From Escherichia coli (GTDB taxonomy: Bacteria > Pseudomonadota > Gammaproteobacteria > Enterobacterales > Enterobacteriaceae): 64,000 nucleotides of DNA. Under the pieces are notes generated by a model that saw nothing but the letters and a program-made list of their open reading frames with translations, ran no database searches and had not been told where the DNA came from. The translations under genes and the position numbers were made by a program. The DNA lies in NCBI RefSeq assembly GCF_029227855.1, contig NZ_CP074356.1; one strand, given 5' to 3'. Positions 3,985 through 16,143 of this stretch are shown here, in pieces. How positions within the stretch are numbered: position 1 is the stretch's first letter; every line of letters begins with the position of its first letter.

Positions 3985-5517
3985 ATGACGCAGAAAATTG
4001 AACAATCTCAACGACAAGAACGGGTAGCGGCCTGGAATCGTCGCGCTGAATGCGATCTTGCCGCTTTCCAGAACTCGCCAAAGCAAACCTACCAGGCTGA
4101 AAAAGCGCGCGATCGCAAACTGTGCGCCAACCTGGAAGAAGCGATTCGTCGCTCGGGTTTACAGGACGGTATGACGGTTTCCTTCCATCACGCTTTCCGT
4201 GGCGGTGACCTGACCGTCAATATGGTGATGGACGTCATCGCGAAGATGGGCTTTAAAAACCTGACTCTGGCCTCCAGCTCCCTGAGTGATTGCCATGCGC
4301 CGCTGGTAGAACACATTCGCCAGGGCGTGGTTACCCGCATTTATACCTCTGGCCTGCGCGGTCCACTGGCGGAAGAAATCTCCCGTGGTCTGCTGGCGGA
4401 ACCGGTGCAAATCCACTCTCACGGCGGACGTGTGCATCTGGTACAGAGCGGCGAACTGAATATTGATGTGGCTTTCCTCGGCGTCCCGTCCTGTGATGAA
4501 TTCGGTAATGCCAACGGCTACACCGGTAAAGCCTGCTGCGGCTCCCTCGGCTATGCAATGGTTGATGCCGACAACGCGAAACAGGTTGTGATGCTCACTG
4601 AAGAACTGCTGCCTTATCCGCATAATCCGGCAAGCATTGAGCAAGATCAGGTTGATCTGATCGTCAAAGTTGATCGCGTTGGCGATGCCGCGAAAATCGG
4701 CGCTGGCGCGACCCGTATGACCACTAACCCGCGCGAACTGCTTATTGCCCGTAGCGCTGCGGATGTGATTGTCAACTCAGGCTACTTTAAAGAAGGTTTC
4801 TCCATGCAGACCGGCACCGGCGGCGCATCGCTGGCGGTAACCCGTTTCCTGGAAGACAAAATGCGTAGCCGCGATATTCGCGCCGACTTCGCCCTTGGCG
4901 GTATTACCGCAACGATGGTTGATCTGCACGAAAAAGGGCTGATCCGCAAACTGCTGGATGTACAGAGCTTTGACAGCCACGCTGCACAATCGCTGGCCCG
5001 TAACCCCAATCACATCGAAATCAGCGCCAACCAGTACGCTAACTGGGGTTCAAAAGGCGCATCGGTTGATCGTCTCGACGTGGTGGTACTGAGCGCGCTG
5101 GAAATTGACACCCAGTTCAACGTTAACGTGCTGACCGGCTCTGACGGCGTACTGCGTGGTGCTTCCGGTGGTCACTGCGATACCGCGATTGCCTCTGCGC
5201 TTTCCATCATCGTCGCGCCGCTGGTACGCGGTCGTATTCCGACTCTGGTGGATAACGTGCTGACCTGCATCACCCCGGGCTCCAGTGTCGATATTCTGGT
5301 CACTGACCACGGTATCGCAGTTAACCCGGCACGTCCGGAGCTGGCAGAACGTCTGCAGGAAGCGGGCATTAAAGTGGTTTCCATTGAGTGGCTGCGTGAA
5401 CGTGCGCGTCTGCTGACCGGTGAACCACAGCCGATTGAATTCACCGACCGCGTCGTTGCCGTTGTGCGTTACCGCGATGGCTCGGTGATCGATGTTGTGC
5501 ATCAGGTGAAGGAATAA
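3985..5517 (+). CDS. citF: Citrate lyase alpha subunit (citrate CoA-transferase) CitF, 510 aa
   Basis: ORF 3889..5517; start taken at ATG 3985 (MTQKIEQSQRQERVAAWNRR...), 10 nt after citE stop. Confidence 0.92.
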   Translation: MTQKIEQSQRQERVAAWNRRAECDLAAFQNSPKQTYQAEKARDRKLCANLEEAIRRSGLQDGMTVSFHHAFRGGDLTVNMVMDVIAKMGFKNLTLASSSLSDCHAPLVEHIRQGVVTRIYTSGLRGPLAEEISRGLLAEPVQIHSHGGRVHLVQSGELNIDVAFLGVPSCDEFGNANGYTGKACCGSLGYAMVDADNAKQVVMLTEELLPYPHNPASIEQDQVDLIVKVDRVGDAAKIGAGATRMTTNPRELLIARSAADVIVNSGYFKEGFSMQTGTGGASLAVTRFLEDKMRSRDIRADFALGGITATMVDLHEKGLIRKLLDVQSFDSHAAQSLARNPNHIEISANQYANWGSKGASVDRLDVVVLSALEIDTQFNVNVLTGSDGVLRGASGGHCDTAIASALSIIVAPLVRGRIPTLVDNVLTCITPGSSVDILVTDHGIAVNPARPELAERLQEAGIKVVSIEWLRERARLLTGEPQPIEFTDRVVAVVRYRDGSVIDVVHQVKE

Positions 5518-5520
5518 GCC

Positions 5521-6925
<1,405 letters not shown>

Positions 6926-6974
6926 TAATTTAAGCACTTGATAAAATTGGAATATTAATTGTCGGAGAACCCGT

Positions 6975-8438
6975 ATGTCTTTAGCAAAAGATAATATATG
7001 GAAATTATTGGCGCCCCTGGTGGTGATGGGTGTCATGTTTCTTATCCCTGTACCTGACGGTATGCCGCCGCAGGCGTGGCATTACTTTGCAGTGTTTGTG
7101 GCAATGATTGTCGGCATGATCCTCGAGCCAATTCCGGCAACGGCGATCAGTTTTATTGCGGTTACTATTTGCGTTATTGGCAGTAATTACCTGCTCTTTG
7201 ATGCCAAAGAATTAGCTGACCCAGCGTTTAATGCGCAAAAACAGGCGCTGAAATGGGGTCTGGCTGGTTTTTCCAGCACCACGGTATGGCTGGTATTTGG
7301 CGCATTTATTTTTGCATTAGGGTATGAAGTTTCCGGGTTAGGCCGTCGTATTGCCCTTTTCCTGGTGAAATTCATGGGCAAACGCACGCTGACGTTGGGT
7401 TATGCGATTGTCATTATCGACATTCTGCTGGCACCGTTTACACCGTCCAACACCGCGCGTACCGGGGGTACGGTTTTTCCGGTCATTAAAAACCTGCCGC
7501 CGCTGTTTAAATCATTCCCGAACGATCCGTCCGCGCGTCGTATTGGCGGCTATTTGATGTGGATGATGGTCATTAGTACCAGTCTGAGTTCGTCCATGTT
7601 TGTCACCGGTGCGGCACCAAACGTACTGGGTCTGGAGTTCGTCAGCAAAATTGCCGGTATCCAGATTAGCTGGTTGCAGTGGTTCCTCTGCTTCCTGCCG
7701 GTTGGGGTTATCTTGCTTATCATTGCGCCGTGGCTTTCCTACGTGCTGTACAAACCGGAAATCACACACAGTGAAGAAGTGGCAACCTGGGCGGGTGATG
7801 AACTAAAAACCATGGGTGCGCTGACACGCAGAGAGTGGACGCTGATTGGTCTTGTATTGCTCAGCTTAGGTTTGTGGGTATTTGGCAGTGAAGTCATTAA
7901 TGCTACTGCGGTAGGTCTGCTGGCAGTTTCGCTAATGTTGGCCCTGCACGTTGTGCCGTGGAAAGACATTACCCGCTATAACAGCGCATGGAACACACTG
8001 GTCAACCTGGCAACTCTGGTTGTGATGGCTAATGGCCTGACTCGTTCTGGTTTTATTGACTGGTTCGCCGGTACCATGAGTACGCACCTGGAAGGCTTCT
8101 CACCAAACGCAACGGTGATTGTACTGGTTCTGGTGTTCTACTTTGCGCACTACCTGTTTGCCAGCCTGTCTGCGCACACCGCAACCATGCTGCCGGTTAT
8201 TCTGGCCGTCGGTAAAGGTATTCCGGGCGTACCAATGGAACAACTGTGTATCCTGCTGGTGCTGTCTATCGGTATCATGGGCTGTCTGACGCCGTATGCA
8301 ACCGGTCCTGGGGTGATTATTTACGGCTGTGGCTATGTGAAATCAAAAGATTACTGGCGACTTGGTGCAATCTTCGGGGTGATTTACATCTCTATGCTGC
8401 TGTTGGTTGGCTGGCCGATTCTCGCCATGTGGAACTAA
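6975..8438 (+). CDS. citT: Citrate:succinate antiporter CitT, 487 aa
   Basis: ORF track 6975..8438, polytopic membrane protein MSLAKDNIWKLLAPLVVMGVMFLIPVPDG...; last gene of the cit cluster. Confidence 0.93.
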   Translation: MSLAKDNIWKLLAPLVVMGVMFLIPVPDGMPPQAWHYFAVFVAMIVGMILEPIPATAISFIAVTICVIGSNYLLFDAKELADPAFNAQKQALKWGLAGFSSTTVWLVFGAFIFALGYEVSGLGRRIALFLVKFMGKRTLTLGYAIVIIDILLAPFTPSNTARTGGTVFPVIKNLPPLFKSFPNDPSARRIGGYLMWMMVISTSLSSSMFVTGAAPNVLGLEFVSKIAGIQISWLQWFLCFLPVGVILLIIAPWLSYVLYKPEITHSEEVATWAGDELKTMGALTRREWTLIGLVLLSLGLWVFGSEVINATAVGLLAVSLMLALHVVPWKDITRYNSAWNTLVNLATLVVMANGLTRSGFIDWFAGTMSTHLEGFSPNATVIVLVLVFYFAHYLFASLSAHTATMLPVILAVGKGIPGVPMEQLCILLVLSIGIMGCLTPYATGPGVIIYGCGYVKSKDYWRLGAIFGVIYISMLLLVGWPILAMWN

Positions 8439-8468
8439 TACGTTCGCCAAACGCTGAATAAATCATCA

Positions 8469-8505
8469 CGCCCGCCAGGTAAGCCCACCTGGCGGGCTTT
8501 TTTAT
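8469..8505 (+). terminator. Rho-independent terminator downstream of citT
   Basis: GC-rich inverted repeat GCCCGCCAGGT / ACCTGGCGGGC followed by a T-run (TTTTTTAT), 31 nt after the citT stop. Confidence 0.6.
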
Positions 8506-8551
8506 GATTTAATAGATAGTATTCAGTGTATGTATGAGTTCCACACCCATT

Positions 8552-9358
8552 ATGAAAGCATTCTGGCGTAACGCCGCGTTGCTCGCGGTTTCTCTGCTTC
8601 CCTTCTCTTCTGCCAACGCCGTGGCGTTGCAGGCAAAACAGTATGGCGATTTTGATCGCTATGTCCTGGCCCTCTCCTGGCAAACCGGATTTTGCCAGAG
8701 TCAACACGATCGAAATCGTAACGAACGAGATGAATGTCGCCTGCAAACCGAAACGACCAACAAAGCTGATTTTCTGACCGTACATGGTCTATGGCCAGGA
8801 TTGCCTAAATCGGTTGCTGCCCGTGGTGTTGATGAACGCCGCTGGATGCGCTTCGGTTGCGCTACTCGCCCAATCCCGAATCTACCAGAAGCGCGCGCCA
8901 GCCGAATGTGTTCATCGCCGGAAACCGGGTTATCGCTGGAAACGGCCGCTAAACTAAGTGAAGTCATGCCAGGAGCTGGCGGACGTTCCTGCCTGGAACG
9001 CTACGAATATGCCAAACACGGTGCCTGCTTTGGTTTTGATCCAGACGCATACTTCGGCACGATGGTACGCCTGAATCAAGAAGTTAAAGAGAGCGAAGCC
9101 GGAAAATTCCTTGCGGATAACTACGGTAACACAGTGAGCCGCCGTGACTTTGATGCCGCCTTTGCCAAAAGCTGGGGAAAAGAGAACGTGAAAGCAGTTA
9201 AGCTAACGTGCCAGGGTAACCCTGCGTATTTGACTGAAATTCAGATCTCGATCAAAGCTGACGCCATCAACGCTCCGCTTTCTGCCAACTCATTCTTGCC
9301 ACAACCACACCCAGGCAACTGTGGCAAAACCTTTGTGATTGATAAAGCAGGTTATTAA
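8552..9358 (+). CDS. rna: Periplasmic ribonuclease I, 268 aa
   Basis: ORF 8534..9358; start taken at ATG 8552 (MKAFWRNAALLAVSLLPFSSANA... signal peptide). Confidence 0.92.
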   Translation: MKAFWRNAALLAVSLLPFSSANAVALQAKQYGDFDRYVLALSWQTGFCQSQHDRNRNERDECRLQTETTNKADFLTVHGLWPGLPKSVAARGVDERRWMRFGCATRPIPNLPEARASRMCSSPETGLSLETAAKLSEVMPGAGGRSCLERYEYAKHGACFGFDPDAYFGTMVRLNQEVKESEAGKFLADNYGNTVSRRDFDAAFAKSWGKENVKAVKLTCQGNPAYLTEIQISIKADAINAPLSANSFLPQPHPGNCGKTFVIDKAGY

Positions 9359-9536
9359 TCCTCTGATTTACAAAACACGCTAATTCGTCTTCCATAAACC
9401 ATGACGATTAAGATTTATACATAATGCGCTACATTGAGGAATTCCCTGAATGTGACGCAAATCACTTCAAAGAGTGAGCAACAGTCAGTATCATCATGTG
9501 AGTTAAACCCTCGCCGCCTGACGGTGAGGGTTTTCT

Positions 9537-10248
9537 TGTGCACAGAAAACCCCCAGCTAGGCTGGGGGTTCCGGAAAGCTTTCAGCTTTGAGCCTGTTAT
9601 TAAAACCCCTTTTGATTTGTTAAAACACCTTGCGGTCTGGCAACTGCAAGTGTCAAACAAGAAATCAAAAGGGGGTCCCAATGGGGAACGAAAAGAGCTT
9701 AGCGCACACCCGATGGAACTGTAAATATCACATAGTTTTTGCGCCAAAATACCGAAGACAGGTGTTCTACAGAGAGAAGCGTAGAGCAATAGGCAGTATT
9801 TTGAGAAAGCTGTGTGAGTGGAAAAGCGTACGGATTCTGGAAGCTGAATGCTGTGCAGATCATATCCATATGCTTGTGGAGATCCCGCCTAAAATGAGCG
9901 TATCCGGGTTTATGGGATATCTGAAAGGGAAAAGCAGTCTGATGCTTTACGAGCAGTTTGGTGATTTGAAATTCAAATACAGGAACAGGGAGTTCTGGTG
10001 CAGAGGGTACTACGTCGATACAGTGGGTAAGAACACGGCGAAGATACAGGATTACACAAAGCACCAGCTTGAAGAGGATAAAATGGGAGAGCAGTTATCG
10101 ATTCCCTATCCGGGCAGCCCGTTTACGGGCCGTAAGTAACGAAGTTGGATGCAAATGTCAGATCGTGTGCGCCTGTTAGGGCGCGGCTGGTAAGAGAGCC
10201 TTATAGGCGCATTTGAAAAACCTCCGGCTATGCCGGAGGATATTTATT
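9537..10248 (+). mobile_element. IS200 copy 1 (IS200/IS605 family), ~712 bp, boundaries approximate (+/- 5 bp)
   Basis: Boundaries set by where the sequence stops matching the reverse complement of copy 2 (48334..49046). Contains a left-end hairpin CCCCCAGC-TAG-GCTGGGGG, a 152-aa tnpA, and a right-end hairpin CCTCCGGC-TAT-GCCGGAGG. No terminal inverted repeats, as expected for this family. Confidence 0.85.
9681..10139 (+). CDS. tnpA: IS200 transposase TnpA (HUH Y1 transposase), 152 aa
   Basis: ORF 9630..10139; start taken at ATG 9681 (MGNEKSLAHTRWNCKYHIVFAPKYRRQVFY...HIHMLVEIPPK), the IS200 TnpA signature. Confidence 0.9.
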   Translation: MGNEKSLAHTRWNCKYHIVFAPKYRRQVFYREKRRAIGSILRKLCEWKSVRILEAECCADHIHMLVEIPPKMSVSGFMGYLKGKSSLMLYEQFGDLKFKYRNREFWCRGYYVDTVGKNTAKIQDYTKHQLEEDKMGEQLSIPYPGSPFTGRK

Positions 10249-10299
10249 TTTGGGTATGTTTATCTGCGACACTCGCAGTACCGACGACATGGAGTAAAA

Positions 10300-10710
10300 A
10301 TGTCCAGACCAACTATCATCATTAACGACCTGGATGCCGAACGCATCGATATTCTGCTGGAGCAACCCGCCTATGCTGGTTTGCCAATCGCCGACGCGTT
10401 AAACGCAGAGTTGGATCGCGCCCAAATGTGTTCGCCAGAAGAGATGCCACACGACGTGGTGACAATGAACAGCCGGGTTAAATTCCGCAATCTTAGCGAT
10501 GGCGAAGTGCGTGTGCGCACGCTGGTGTATCCGGCAAAAATGACCGACAGCAATACTCAGCTTTCCGTTATGGCTCCGGTAGGTGCCGCACTGCTGGGGC
10601 TGCGCGTTGGCGATTCCATTCACTGGGAACTTCCGGGCGGCGTTGCAACCCACCTTGAAGTGCTGGAACTCGAATACCAGCCAGAAGCTGCTGGCGACTA
10701 CCTGCTTTAA
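10300..10710 (+). CDS. rnk: Regulator of nucleoside diphosphate kinase Rnk (GreA/GreB-like), 136 aa
   Basis: ORF 10213..10710; start taken at ATG 10300 ([28 protein letters not shown]...). Confidence 0.9.
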
Positions 10711-10852
10711 TCCCATCTGCACAAGCGATAACTCGCTTTGCCCAGAGGATGCACTCGCATCCTCTTTTCGCTCAAATATCAACCAGATTTATCATTTTGC
10801 TCTTAAGCGCAGCATTCTAATCTGAACTGGTTATTCATCTGCGGAACCTCAT

Positions 10853-10942
10853 ATGAGCGAAGCTCTCGGTATCACTGCATTTTATATATTCATAGCCGCG
10901 ATTATTGTTGCTGCAGTGCTATACCTTGAACAACGCTGGTAG
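10853..10942 (+). CDS. Candidate small hydrophobic protein, 29 aa (MSEALGITAFYIFIAAIIVAAVLYLEQRW), hypothetical
   Basis: Short ATG-to-TAG ORF read from the raw sequence in the 355-bp rnk-uspG spacer; one predicted transmembrane helix; weak Shine-Dalgarno. Below the ORF-track size cutoff. Confidence 0.2.
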   Translation: MSEALGITAFYIFIAAIIVAAVLYLEQRW

Positions 10943-11065
10943 CGCCTGGTTTTATTTATTTTCCAGCTCAATAGCAAATTCAGATCAAATCAGCCTCGCA
11001 AATCATAGATTCATAACCAATAATGTGCTGTTATGTATACATGCAAAAACAAGGAGAGAATGCTT

Positions 11066-11494
11066 ATGTACAAGACAATCATCATGCCAGTGGATGTTTT
11101 CGAAATGGAATTGAGCGACAAAGCTGTTCGCCACGCTGAATTCCTCGCCCAGGATGACGGAGTTATTCATCTACTTCACGTACTACCCGGGTCAGCCAGC
11201 CTGAGCCTGCACCGTTTTGCCGCTGATGTGCGTCGTTTTGAAGAGCATCTGCAACATGAAGCAGAAGAACGTCTGCAAACGATGGTCAGCCACTTCACCA
11301 TCGATCCTTCCCGCATTAAGCAACATGTCCGTTTTGGTAGCGTGCGGGATGAAGTCAATGAGTTGGCAGAAGAACTGGGGGCTGATGTTGTAGTTATCGG
11401 TTCGCGCAACCCTTCGATTTCGACCCATCTGTTAGGTTCTAACGCCTCGAGCGTGATCCGCCACGCCAATCTGCCGGTGCTGGTTGTGCGTTAA
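11066..11494 (+). CDS. uspG: Universal stress protein G (UspG/YbdQ), 142 aa
   Basis: ORF 11033..11494; start taken at ATG 11066 ([29 protein letters not shown]...). Confidence 0.9.
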
Positions 11495-11510
11495 TTGCCA
11501 GAATAAATAT

Positions 11511-11548
11511 CCCGCCCTGCCCGGAGCCATCCCGGCGGGGCTTTTTAT
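11511..11548 (+). terminator. Terminator hairpin downstream of uspG
   Basis: CCCGCC...GGCGGGG stem followed by CTTTTTATT, directly after the uspG stop. Confidence 0.5.
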
Positions 11549-11552
11549 TGCC

Positions 11553-11586
11553 ATAAAAAAGCCGCCAGGTTTGACCCCGGCGGCTA
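11553..11586 (-). terminator. Terminator hairpin downstream of ahpF (minus strand)
   Basis: GCCGCC(N12)GGCGGC stem with an A-run on the plus strand (a U-run on the minus-strand transcript), 30 nt past the ahpF stop. Confidence 0.5.
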
Positions 11587-11614
11587 AGCAATTGCAGGTG
11601 AATCTTACTTCTTC

Positions 11615-13180
11615 TTATGCTGTTTTGGTGCGAATCAGGTAGTCAAAAGCACTCAGAGAGGCTTTGGCACCTTCGCCAGTGGCGATGATGATCTGCTTGT
11701 ACGGAACCGTTGTACAGTCACCCGCTGCGAACACGCCTTTCACGTTGGTTTCGCATTTCGCATCAATGATAATCTCGCCCATGCGGTTACGTTCGACTGC
11801 GCCTTCGAGCCAGTTGGTGTTCGGCAGCAGACCAATCTGCACGAAAATACCGGCCAGTTCGATGTTGTGAATATCGCCGCTGACACGATCGCGATATTCC
11901 AGACCAACGACTTTGCTGCCGTCGCCTTTCACTTCCGTGGTTTGCGCATTCAGAATAATGTCGACGTTTTTCAGGCTGCGCAGTTTGTCCTGCAGAACCT
12001 GGTCGGCTTTCATTTCTGGCGCAAATTCCAGCAGAGTTACGTGCTCAACGATACCCGCCAGGTCGATTGCTGCTTCCACGCCGGAGTTACCGCCGCCGAT
12101 AACCGCTACGCGTTTACCTTTAAACAGCGGGCCGTCGCAGTGCGGGCAGTAGGTCACGCCTTTGGTGCGATACTGATCTTCGCCCGGAACGTTCATGTTG
12201 CGCCATTTTGCACCGGTCGCCACGATAATGCTGCGCGCTTTCAGTACCGCGCCGGAAGCTGTTTCAATCTGATGCAGGCCACCTTCAACCGCTGCCGGGA
12301 TCAGTTTGCTGGCGCTCTGGCTGTCGATCACATCAACATCGTATTCATCAACGTGAACTTTCAGTGCCCCTGCCAGCTTCTGCCCTTCGGTCTTCGGTAC
12401 AGAAATGTAGTTTTCGATATCAACGGTATCGAGGATCTGACCACCAAAACGTTCGCCCATCAAACCAGTACGGATACCTTTACGTGCGGAGTAAATTGCT
12501 GCCGCTGCACCCGCCGGGCCGGAACCGACGATTAATACGTCATAAGCATCACGCTTGTTCAGCTCTTCTGCCGCACGTTTTTCCGCGCCAGTATCAATTT
12601 TGGCGACGATTTCAGTCAACGTCATGCGACCCTGACCAAACTCTTTCCCGTTTACGAACACTGCCGGAACGCCCATCACGTTGCGATCGGTGATTTCGTT
12701 CTGGAAGGTGCCGCCGTCAATTGCAGTGTGCTTGATGCGCGGGTTCAGTACGCTCATCAGGTTCAGCGCCTGCACCACGTCCGGGCAGTTGTGGCAAGAG
12801 AGCGAGTAATAGGTTTCGAATTCAAAATCACCGTCAATATGGCGAATCTGCTCCAGCAGAGACTGCGCTTCTTTCGACGGATGACCACCGGTCCACAACA
12901 ACGCCAGTACCAGCGAGGTAAACTCGTGGCCCAGCGGGGAACCTGCAAAACGTGGCCCCTGGTTAGAACCTGGGTTAGTGATCAGGAAAGACGGCTTACG
13001 CACCGGCAAGCTGTTATCTTCTTTAAAGGTGACTTTGTCTGACAGTTCTGCGATTTCAGCCAACAGTTCCTTGATTTCTGCCGATTTAGCGCTGTCATCC
13101 AGCGTGGCAATTAACTCAACAGGCTTGGTCAATTTCTCAAGGTAAGCCTTGAGTTGAGTTTTCATATTTGTGTCGAGCAT
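11615..13180 (-). CDS. ahpF: Alkyl hydroperoxide reductase subunit F, 521 aa
   Basis: ORF 11615..13210; start taken at the ATG at 13180 ([30 protein letters not shown]...) with AGGAG upstream; flavoprotein disulfide reductase motifs. Confidence 0.93.
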
Positions 13181-13350
13181 GTTTATCTCCTGGGCTTTAA
13201 ACATCATCATGCAAGCGGCCTCTGCGGCTACCTGGATGCAGCTTGCATCATGGTGCGGGGAAGAAAATCGGGTGCCGCAGCACCCGAAGAATTAGGTGAA
13301 TTTCCGAAGTATTTCGCGCCGGAGTTGGTAGCGCGAAAGACGAAGGAAAT

Positions 13351-13914
13351 TTAGATTTTACCAACCAGGTCCAGAGACGGAGCCAGAGTTGCTTCACCTT
13401 CTTTCCATTTAGCCGGGCAAACTTCACCTGGGTGAGAAGCTACGTACTGTGCTGCTTTGATTTTACGCAGCAGGTCAGACGCGTCACGGCCAATGCCTTC
13501 AGCGGTAACTTCGATTGCCTGGATGATACCCTGCGGGTCAACAACGAAGGTCGCACGGTCAGCCAGACCTTCATCTTCACGCATGTTGTCGAAGTTACGG
13601 GTCAGGGCGCCAGTCGGGTCGCCGATCATCGCATATTTGATTTTAGCGATGGTTTCAGAGCTGCTGTGCCATGCTTTGTGGGTGAAGTGAGTATCGGTAG
13701 ATACTGCGTATACGTCTACGCCCAGTTTCTGCAGTTCTTCGTAGTGGTCAGCAACGTCACCCAGTTCGGTCGGGCATACGAAAGTAAAGTCAGCCGGGTA
13801 GAAGAAGAAGACGCTCCAGCGGCCTTCGGTATCTTTTTCGGTGATTTCGATGAATTCGCCGTTTTTGAATGCCTGGTTTTTAAAAGGTTTAATTTTGGTG
13901 TTAATCAAGGACAT
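13351..13914 (-). CDS. ahpC: Alkyl hydroperoxide reductase subunit C (peroxiredoxin), 187 aa
   Basis: ORF track 13351..13914, [51 protein letters not shown]... Confidence 0.95.
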
Positions 13915-14285
13915 CTATACTTCCTCCGTGTTTTCGATGAGATGTAAGGTAACCAATTTTTGCCGATTCGGCTAATGCGTTTCCATTATCAAATCGATAA
14001 GTTTTACCTTACAACCTTCGTAAGACAACTTTGTGAACTTTGCACCGCCAGCGGCGATAAAAAGTAAAATGGCCCCCTTTCCAGGTGACCGTGTAATCTG
14101 AACTACCCTTTGGTATCTTCAGCGCCTGCCTGCAGGCTGAGGTGTTGCCCTTACAAATGCAACAACGACATGGATTACAACACCCTCATAAACAAAGGGC
14201 AATCACCTGATCTAAGCTCTTACCTATGACAGTGATAGGTTATGCCTTTTACCCGACTTTTGCACTGACTGAAAAGGACAAATTA
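13915..14285. promoter_or_regulatory. Divergent ahpC / dsbG promoter region (expected OxyR-controlled ahpC promoter)
   Basis: 371-bp spacer between divergently transcribed ahpC and dsbG, the same size as in K-12; individual operator sites not resolved by eye. Confidence 0.5.
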
Positions 14286-15032
14286 ATGTTAAAAAAGATA
14301 CTTTTACTGGCTCTGCTTCCTGCAATCGCCTTCGCAGAGGAACTTCCTGATCCAGTAAAAGCGATTGAAAAACAGGGTATTACGATCATCAAAACATTCG
14401 ATGCTCCCGGAGGAATGAAAGGTTATCTCGGAAAGTATCAGGATATGGGCGTCACCATCTACCTGACTCCAGATGGTAAGCACGCTATCTCCGGTTACAT
14501 GTACAACGAGAAAGGTGAAAACCTGAGTAACACACTTATCGAAAAAGAAATTTACGCACCAGCCGGACGCGAAATGTGGCAACGGATGGAACAATCCCAC
14601 TGGCTCCTCGACGGTAAAAAAGATGCGCCGGTCATTGTCTACGTCTTCGCCGATCCTTTCTGCCCATATTGTAAACAGTTCTGGCAGCAGGCTCGTCCGT
14701 GGGTAGATTCTGGCAAAGTGCAATTAAGAACATTGTTGGTTGGCGTTATCAAGCCAGAAAGCCCGGCGACAGCAGCGGCAATTCTTGCCGCCAAAGATCC
14801 CGCAAAAACCTGGCAAGAATATGAAGCCTCTGGTGGCAAGCTTAAGCTAAACGTGCCTGCAAACGTAAGTACAGAGCAAATGAAAGTGTTAAGCGATAAC
14901 GAGAAACTGATGGACGATCTGGGGGCAAATGTCACGCCAGCTATCTATTACATGAGTAAGGAAAATACACTGCAACAGGCCGTGGGGTTGCCCGATCAGA
15001 AAACGCTTAATATCATTATGGGGAATAAATAA
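14286..15032 (+). CDS. dsbG: Periplasmic thiol:disulfide interchange protein DsbG, 248 aa
   Basis: ORF 14226..15032; start taken at ATG 14286 ([30 protein letters not shown]...); CPYC active-site motif present. Confidence 0.9.
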
Positions 15033-15240
15033 AAGATAATTCATGGATGGTTGAACTATATCCCTGCTTTTCAACCATCCTAAAAAAGCATGAATTGCTC
15101 GCTCTGCCCTAAGTGGCTGTGCTATTTTAGTAAAACTTAATCCTGAGTTAAGCAAAAAAACATAATCAATAAAAATATATACGCAAAAAACATTGATTAA
15201 GTGAATATACCATGGAAGAAAAATATAACCGGAGTAGTGT

Positions 15241-16143
15241 ATGGCCAATCTCTACGACTTGAAAAAGTTCGACTTAAATCTTCTTGTCATATTTGAGTGT
15301 ATTTATCAGCATTTAAGCATTAGCAAGGCTGCTGAATCACTATATATCACCCCGTCAGCCGTGAGCCAGTCGTTACAACGCTTACGTGCGCAATTTAATG
15401 ACCCTTTATTCATTCGCTCAGGAAAAGGTATCGCGCCGACGACGACAGGGTTAAATCTGCATCACCATCTTGAGAAAAACCTCAGAGGCCTTGAACAAAC
15501 AATTAATATAGTCAATAAGTCCGAACTAAAGAAAAACTTTATTATCTACGGCCCTCAGCTCATTTCTTGCTCTAATAATAGTATGCTGATCCGCTGCCTA
15601 CGGCAAGATGCCTCTGTCGAGATTGAGTGCCATGATATCCTCATGTCAGCAGAGAATGCTGAAGAACTGTTGGTTCACCGCAAAGCCGATCTGGTGATCA
15701 CCCAAATGCCAGTGATCAGCCGTTCCGTCATTTGCATGCCATTGCATACAATTCGCAATACTCTAATTTGTAGTAATAAGCATCCGCGAATTACTGACAA
15801 TAGCACTTATGAACAAATTATGACAGAAGAGTTCACCCAATTAATATCCAAATCAGCAGGAGTTGATGATATTCAAATGGAAATAGACGAGAAGTTTATG
15901 AATCGCAAAATTTCATTTCGTGGTTCCTCTTTGCTGACAATCATTAATAGCATTGCAGTTACAGATTTACTGGGAATAGTCCCCTATGAACTTTATAACT
16001 CCCACCGTGACTTTCTTAATTTAAAAGAGATAAAACTAGAACATCCGTTACCTTCAATAAAGCTTTACATTTCCTATAATAAATCTTCTTTAAATAATTT
16101 GGTGTTCTCCCGATTTATTGATCGTCTAAATGAGAGTTTTTGA
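15241..16143 (+). CDS. ybdO: LysR-family transcriptional regulator YbdO, 300 aa
   Basis: ORF track 15241..16143; N-terminal helix-turn-helix (LSISKAAESLYITPSAVSQSLQRLR); synteny between dsbG and ybdN. Confidence 0.88.
   Translation: MANLYDLKKFDLNLLVIFECIYQHLSISKAAESLYITPSAVSQSLQRLRAQFNDPLFIRSGKGIAPTTTGLNLHHHLEKNLRGLEQTINIVNKSELKKNFIIYGPQLISCSNNSMLIRCLRQDASVEIECHDILMSAENAEELLVHRKADLVITQMPVISRSVICMPLHTIRNTLICSNKHPRITDNSTYEQIMTEEFTQLISKSAGVDDIQMEIDEKFMNRKISFRGSSLLTIINSIAVTDLLGIVPYELYNSHRDFLNLKEIKLEHPLPSIKLYISYNKSSLNNLVFSRFIDRLNESF

Follow-up and report, generated by a model that had tools for sequence, protein, structure and literature searches.

What lies between rnk and uspG in an Escherichia coli genome that lacks ybdR there, and is the short open reading frame (ORF) in that space a gene? 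We address these questions in a 64-kb stretch of E. coli DNA, hereafter the window. The original prediction had described a 355-bp gap between the two genes, free of ybdR and of any ORF longer than 80 amino acids (aa), holding an ATG-to-TAG ORF at 10853-10942 with a weak ribosome-binding site (RBS). All of these observations are borne out. The sequence and the ORF list place the spacer at 10711-11065, and the ORF translates exactly as described, MSEALGITAFYIFIAAIIVAAVLYLEQRW. In the ORF list, no ORF of more than 80 aa touches the spacer; the longest (10583-10825) reaches 80 aa exactly, and most of it overlaps rnk in another frame. A tblastn search with K-12 YbdR returned no YbdR-like sequence from the 10 kb around the ORF (window positions 6001-16000). 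The best RBS-like element is GCGGAA at -12 to -7, which is indeed weak. The features of the locus are as follows:

10300..10710, + strand: rnk coding sequence (CDS; nucleoside diphosphate kinase regulator), the upstream neighbour; from the ORF list, the RefSeq annotation of the identical JNEC-KY178 locus and a 100% tblastn match
10719..10768, + strand: two hairpins 3' of rnk (10719-10741; 10744-10765, then UUU), resembling an rnk terminator; from the predicted fold
10768..11101, no strand assigned: haplotype-specific segment; from base-by-base comparison with K-12
10841..10846, + strand: weak Shine-Dalgarno-like element GCGGAA, 7-12 nt 5' of the yldA start codon; read from the sequence
10853..10942, + strand: CDS assigned to yldA, 29-aa small membrane protein YldA, allele of ybdR-less Escherichia; from RefSeq, NCBIfam and conservation
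10943..11065, + strand: yldA-uspG spacer, with the uspG RBS AAGGAG at 11051-11056; from the sequence
11066..11494, + strand: uspG CDS (universal stress protein G), the downstream same-strand neighbour, whose first ~36 nt are part of the diverged segment; from annotation
11615-13210, - strand: ahpF; from the ORF list and annotation

A 1.2-kb stretch spanning rnk to uspG is 100% identical to that of strain JNEC-KY178 and has matches in 5422 of 5426 complete E. coli genomes. Taken by itself, the 29-codon ORF does not stand out from chance: the same spacer is touched by six other ORFs of at least 29 aa. It is lifted above chance by its conservation, that is, by its fixed length and place, its third-position variability and its being the sole match to a family profile.

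Identity of the ORF and its conservation

Our best explanation, in which we place high confidence, is that the ORF is a real gene that already has an annotation, yldA, and that its product is a 29-residue protein with a single transmembrane helix. RefSeq annotates the identical locus of JNEC-KY178 as yldA, “small membrane protein YldA” (WP_001287361.1). Against the NCBIfam equivalog model for YldA (NF041476; 29 positions, curated cutoff 45 bits), the window peptide scores 59 bits (E = 3.2e-16), with residues 1-29 falling on profile positions 1-29. The same model is matched by all 30 aligned homologues. Among the 2166 small ORFs of the window, the ORF at 10853-10942 is the only one matched by the YldA profile. 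The exact peptide is named YldA in a public protein collection, and is found on at least 1000 contigs. It carries the conserved YldA residues (E3, A21, V22, L23, Y/F24, L25, and E26) together with a single hydrophobic helix. Its gene also has the synteny of yldA, being 29 codons long and starting 142 nt 3' of rnk on the same strand. Hydropathy places a 19-residue hydrophobic core at residues 5-23 (mean Kyte-Doolittle 2.67), flanked by M-S-E-A on the N-terminal side and by L-E-Q-R-W as a short C-terminal end. Thus, hydropathy and the family annotation both agree with the earlier description of a plausible single-pass membrane peptide.

Pfam treats the two E. coli alleles of YldA very differently. 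Model PF23689 (YldA-like) gives the K-12 allele 73.6 bits, whereas the window allele receives 22.9 bits (E = 9e-5), below the gathering threshold of 27, although the match is in the right register and is still the top one. The model seems to be centred on alleles of the K-12 type. Annotation by Pfam alone would therefore miss the window allele, and with it a third of complete E. coli genomes and other Escherichia species.

K-12 has its own yldA (b4734, 643330-643419; product MAEAFYILIGFLIMAAIIVMAVLYLENHS), located between rnk and ybdR, with the yldA stop codon 3 bp from that of ybdR. The original prediction named ybdR between uspG and rnk in K-12, where it is not the only gene. Since K-12 has yldA beside ybdR, the ORF is no replacement of ybdR. 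The K-12 and window proteins are alike in their length of 29 aa, in their position ~140 nt 3' of rnk on the same strand, in their hydrophobic core, and in sharing E3 and an AAIIV.AVLYLE motif. They differ at almost half of their residues (15/29 identical, 52%; DNA identity ~60%), and at the C-terminus the window protein has QRW where the K-12 protein has NHS. Their genes also have different downstream neighbours: co-directional uspG in the window and convergent ybdR in K-12.

K-12 YldA has been detected as a protein. Table 1 of VanOrsdel et al. 2018 (PMC6001520) lists it as one of 36 small proteins seen by immunoblot after chromosomal SPA tagging, and the tagged protein, of the K-12 allele only, accumulates stably in cells (PMC6001520). 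In the literature searched, this is the sole paper dealing with the YldA protein. Two others simply list the gene: ybdR-yldA is given as a convergent excludon (PMC12288877), and yldA appears in a table of expression clusters responding to fluoride (PMC10100675). Hence yldA is already known, being named, annotated by RefSeq, modelled by both NCBIfam and Pfam, and detected as a protein in its K-12 form.

We surveyed 80 species-representative Enterobacteriaceae loci, fetched with Rnk as anchor. A yldA of exactly 29 codons, on the same strand, is present in 34 of them, both with and without ybdR. The genera concerned include Escherichia, Citrobacter, Enterobacter, Lelliottia, Leclercia, Kosakonia, Phytobacter, and Pseudenterobacter. 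The gap from rnk to yldA is ~130-150 nt in nearly all 34 loci; it is 236 nt in one (L023) and longer in another (L018). The gene is absent from the other 46 loci, including both from Salmonella, and is therefore dispensable.

All 36 sequences (the 34 species loci, the window and K-12) have 29 codons, and E3, A21, V22, and E26 are invariant in every one. Among the 30 sequences of alignment A1, and only there, M1, Y24, and L25 are invariant as well, while I7, A16, V19, and L23 are at least 90% conserved. Four further loci (L008, L012, L024, and L031) have F24; their LFLE motif was missed by the pattern ..LY[LIV]E, and they were found with an nhmmer profile. In E. coli IHE3034, codon 25 has a first-position change, probably L25F.

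Variation in yldA is concentrated at third codon positions, with summed column entropies of 18.6, 13.5, and 33.1 for positions 1, 2, and 3, respectively; raw pN/pS averages 0.37. Stops interrupt the other two frames in 28/31 and 22/31 sequences. Within Escherichia, substitutions in yldA are synonymous or at third positions. The E. albertii protein is identical to the window peptide at 93% DNA identity, with the changes at third positions, and the non-coding DNA on both sides of yldA in E. albertii has many substitutions and indels. We thus show that many Enterobacteriaceae keep yldA as a protein-coding gene in a constant position 3' of rnk, whether ybdR is present or not. The original prediction had left three options for the ORF. 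The first, a genuine small protein, is correct, and we reject the other two, a remnant and chance.

Expression signals and transcriptional context

The hairpins after rnk fold at -42.8 kcal/mol (z = -4.2). A simple terminator scan does not list them, because their T-run is short. In the second, the stem AGAGGATGC/GCATCCTCT followed by TTT (10744-10768) is invariant in sequence across the aligned genera (loci L002-L076). The loop of this hairpin and the surrounding spacer vary freely. The conservation of the stem exceeds what a terminator usually needs, and the E. coli haplotype switch described below has its left border at the T-tract of this hairpin.

A strict scan of 10200-11650 found no sigma-70-like promoter, and the -10/-35 candidates upstream of yldA are weak by eye. 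At the position of GCGGAA, the alignment shows a G-rich element in other genera (GTGGGA, GTGGGG, CTGGGT). The fold also contains a 7-bp pairing of 10768-10774 with the yldA start region, which we take to be chance; by eye, it is not conserved in K-12 or Citrobacter. An Rfam search of the spacer at permissive thresholds returned only noise (snoZ223, 23 bits, E = 0.24).

Downstream, uspG begins 123 nt 3' of yldA on the same strand. A terminator scan of the yldA-uspG spacer found no terminator-like site, and the spacer folds more weakly than its shuffles (z = +2.1). In the window haplotype, transcription of yldA may continue into uspG, since the two genes share a strand and no terminator is predicted between them. 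This co-directional context is unlike that of K-12, where a convergent ybdR transcript overlaps yldA.

This layout raises the question of whether yldA acts through its peptide or only in cis. As an upstream ORF or leader, yldA would tune uspG expression by being translated, and its peptide would have no role; its co-directional position 123 nt 5' of uspG, without a terminator predicted in the interval, would suit such an arrangement. However, yldA is kept in K-12 and in 12 ybdR-containing loci, and in K-12 the convergent gene separates it from uspG. Moreover, uspG has its own strong RBS, the amino-acid sequence of YldA is conserved, notably in its invariant C-terminal motif, and the tagged K-12 protein is stable (PMC6001520). 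We consider a purely cis-acting role very unlikely.

Even less probable is that YldA is a type I toxin-like hydrophobic peptide, as are Ibs, Ldr, and TisB, held in check by an antisense RNA. The peptide is short and very hydrophobic (GRAVY 1.39), and the overlap of yldA by the convergent ybdR transcript in K-12, a convergent excludon (PMC12288877), could be read in this way. Yet the gene is single copy and keeps a fixed syntenic position across genera, no Rfam family or antisense element was detected, and the ybdR-less haplotype has no convergent gene or antisense partner. The tagged K-12 protein is, in addition, tolerated when expressed from its native locus in rich medium (PMC6001520).

The weak Shine-Dalgarno element, the lack of a consensus promoter among the sites scanned and the abundance of similar-sized ORFs (six others of at least 29 aa) would all be expected of a chance ORF without a product in an AT-rich non-coding spacer, but this reading has next to no probability given the length fixed at 29 codons across genera, the third-position substitution bias, the stops in alternative frames, the score above the curated equivalog cutoff and the detection of the K-12 orthologue's protein (PMC6001520); the conservation pattern already effectively refutes it.

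The region upstream of rnk holds a separate feature. A 712-bp IS200C element (9536-10247; tnpA at 9630-10139, STnc490 match at 9548-9671) separates the Rfam rnk leader (rnk_leader match at 9434-9542) from the rnk coding sequence. Its insertion point is in the T-tract that immediately follows the leader's terminator-like hairpin, where K-12 reads GAGGGTTTTCTT/TTGGG (the slash marks the insertion point). With the element in this place, rnk may be uncoupled from its leader. Of 5426 complete E. coli genomes, only JNEC-KY178 has the leader/IS200 junction; the junction probe, part of which is IS200 sequence, has 24 matches there.

Two haplotypes between rnk and uspG

The original prediction asked for the endpoints of a deletion or insertion relative to K-12, and alignment of the spacer with K-12 defines them. 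Through the rnk terminator hairpins and up to the first mismatch, at 10768, the sequence is the same as in K-12; identity returns only inside uspG, where 5 mismatches fall in 11066-11101 and 5 in the remaining 393 nt. The diverged segment thus spans ~335 bp in the window (10768-~11101) and ~1670 bp in K-12, where it holds the K-12 yldA allele, ybdR, and a different uspG upstream region. The uspG upstream regions of the two barely align. With yldA alleles sharing only 15/29 residues, no ybdR remnant and sharp borders, this segment is an alternative haplotype that has diverged and carries a yldA allele of its own, and not a deletion scar.

The two forms are cleanly biallelic among 5426 complete E. 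coli genomes: 1817 are of the window type and 3605 of the K-12 type, together 5422. Window-type carriers include IHE3034 and an O25b:H4 strain. A search of the literature on rnk, uspG, and ybdR turned up nothing on this polymorphism.

Strain HH97 (NZ_CP116409.1, 1081-1425) has a K-12-type locus from which ybdR is largely deleted, leaving a 192-bp frameshifted dehydrogenase fragment. Its yldA is annotated as 46 aa (141 bp), apparently a fusion across the ybdR deletion. Strain HS-02 (NZ_CP172818.1, 1443-1720) has a window-type locus with the spacer shortened to 278 bp. The annotation of this locus holds no yldA, and it matches the window spacer with 57% coverage and 91% identity; it appears to represent natural loss of, or damage to, yldA.

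Across the 80 species loci, all four combinations of the two genes occur: both are present in 12, yldA alone in 22, ybdR alone in 10, and neither in 36. Thus, neither gene requires the other. In Enterobacter cloacae DSM 26481, where ybdR is present and the rnk-ybdR gap is 117 bp, we observed a partial yldA-like stretch (4473-4511; nhmmer E = 0.002). Such a partial stretch suggests that yldA is decaying in certain lineages of the Enterobacter cloacae complex.

The window-type haplotype occurs in E. albertii and in Escherichia sp. MOD1-EC7003 (a cryptic clade), and window-type YldA also in E. marmotae and in other unclassified Escherichia (cryptic clades). The ybdR-less form is carried by every other Escherichia species in the sample, which did not include E. 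fergusonii. Named members listed for the K-12-type YldA cluster come from E. coli and Shigella; the one exception is a UniRef entry that covers 9 Enterobacteriaceae taxa. Since the other Escherichia sampled carry the window type and the named K-12-type members listed are mostly E. coli and Shigella, the ybdR-less arrangement is probably the older one in the genus, as judged from this sample. Each E. coli yldA allele is nearer to a Citrobacter relative (76% aa identity) than to the other E. coli allele (52%), and therefore either the split is old or one allele was imported.

Set against these data, it is scarcely credible that the ORF is what remained, as a remnant or scar, when a K-12-like ancestor lost ybdR by deletion, and as an account of where the ORF came from this is already refuted. 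It is true that ybdR occupies the site in K-12 and in two thirds of complete E. coli genomes, and that its presence is patchy across the family. However, K-12 and 12 species loci have yldA next to an intact ybdR, nothing in the window spacer resembles YbdR, and the window yldA and uspG upstream region are ~55-60% identical to K-12 between the sharp borders at 10768 and ~11101. E. albertii and a cryptic clade have the same haplotype, whose YldA is also found in E. marmotae, and a real ybdR deletion, that of HH97, looks different. Rather than a deletion, the absence of ybdR is better taken to mark one of two old haplotypes, and probably that which is ancestral in the genus Escherichia.

Resemblance to YoaI and a proposed mode of action

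As a discovery, the ORF is of small value: it is real, but it is an ordinary gene in a common E. coli version of the locus. What we add is modest, namely the depth of the allelic split, the probable ancestry of the ybdR-less form, the sub-threshold Pfam score, and a sequence link to YoaI. The last of these provides a concrete, testable hypothesis for an uncharacterised small protein.

YoaI, a small membrane protein of 34 aa, binds the sensor kinase EnvZ and activates it (PMC11429745). Against the NCBIfam YoaI model (NF041475), the window and K-12 alleles of YldA score 30 and 22.5 bits, respectively, both below the cutoff of 45. The model is matched by 29/30 YldA sequences at E <= 1e-3, the best at 1.2e-8. 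Reciprocally, YoaI scores 14.1 bits against the NCBIfam YldA model. On our own YldA HMM it reaches 17.6 bits, whereas 2000 full and 2000 core-only shuffles peak at 15.9, and eleven other small E. coli proteins score at most 2.4 bits. Part of any similarity between transmembrane helices can be compositional.

In the alignment, S26-V27-L28 and E31-R32 of YoaI fall on A21-V22-L23 and E26-(R/Q)27 of YldA. In YoaI, S26, V27, and E31 are invariant, E31 lies in the cytoplasmic tail, and both E31A and E31Q abolish EnvZ binding and activation (PMC11429745). The invariant E26 of YldA aligns with this residue, and the alignment is what suggests a role for it in YldA. By its sequence, YldA would belong to a YoaI-related family; it is not a YoaI orthologue, because it scores below the YoaI cutoff and lies at a different locus.

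Our best guess, from these comparisons, is that YldA is a YoaI-like modulator of a membrane protein. Hydropathy and the analogy with YoaI predict that YldA inserts in the inner membrane in an N-out/C-in orientation, which would leave only M-S-E at the N-terminus in the periplasm and a cytoplasmic tail of four residues (E26-Q-R-W). It would then bind a larger membrane protein, most likely a sensor kinase, through a contact surface formed by the conserved C-terminal half or face of the helix and the membrane-adjacent Glu26.

Differences between the two E. coli alleles extend over the whole N-terminal half of the helix. Each allele goes with one state of ybdR, present or absent, and with its own transcriptional context, the ybdR excludon in one case and possible co-transcription with uspG in the other. 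A fuller proposal, tentative and on present sequence comparisons rather unlikely, is that YldA and YoaI are paralogous, that YldA modulates a sensor kinase or another inner-membrane protein via A21-V22...E26, and that its alleles may differ in partner affinity or regulation between lineages.

Among known systems, YoaI offers the closest comparison. Like YldA as predicted, YoaI has a single transmembrane helix and a very short cytoplasmic tail, and YldA aligns end to end with YoaI residues 8-34. Unlike YldA, YoaI has five extra N-terminal residues, is encoded between yeaK and yeaL, and has a known partner, EnvZ. The pairs MgrB-PhoQ and MzrA-EnvZ (cited in PMC11429745) resemble YldA, by analogy only, in their general architecture and in the action on a larger membrane protein that is proposed for it here.
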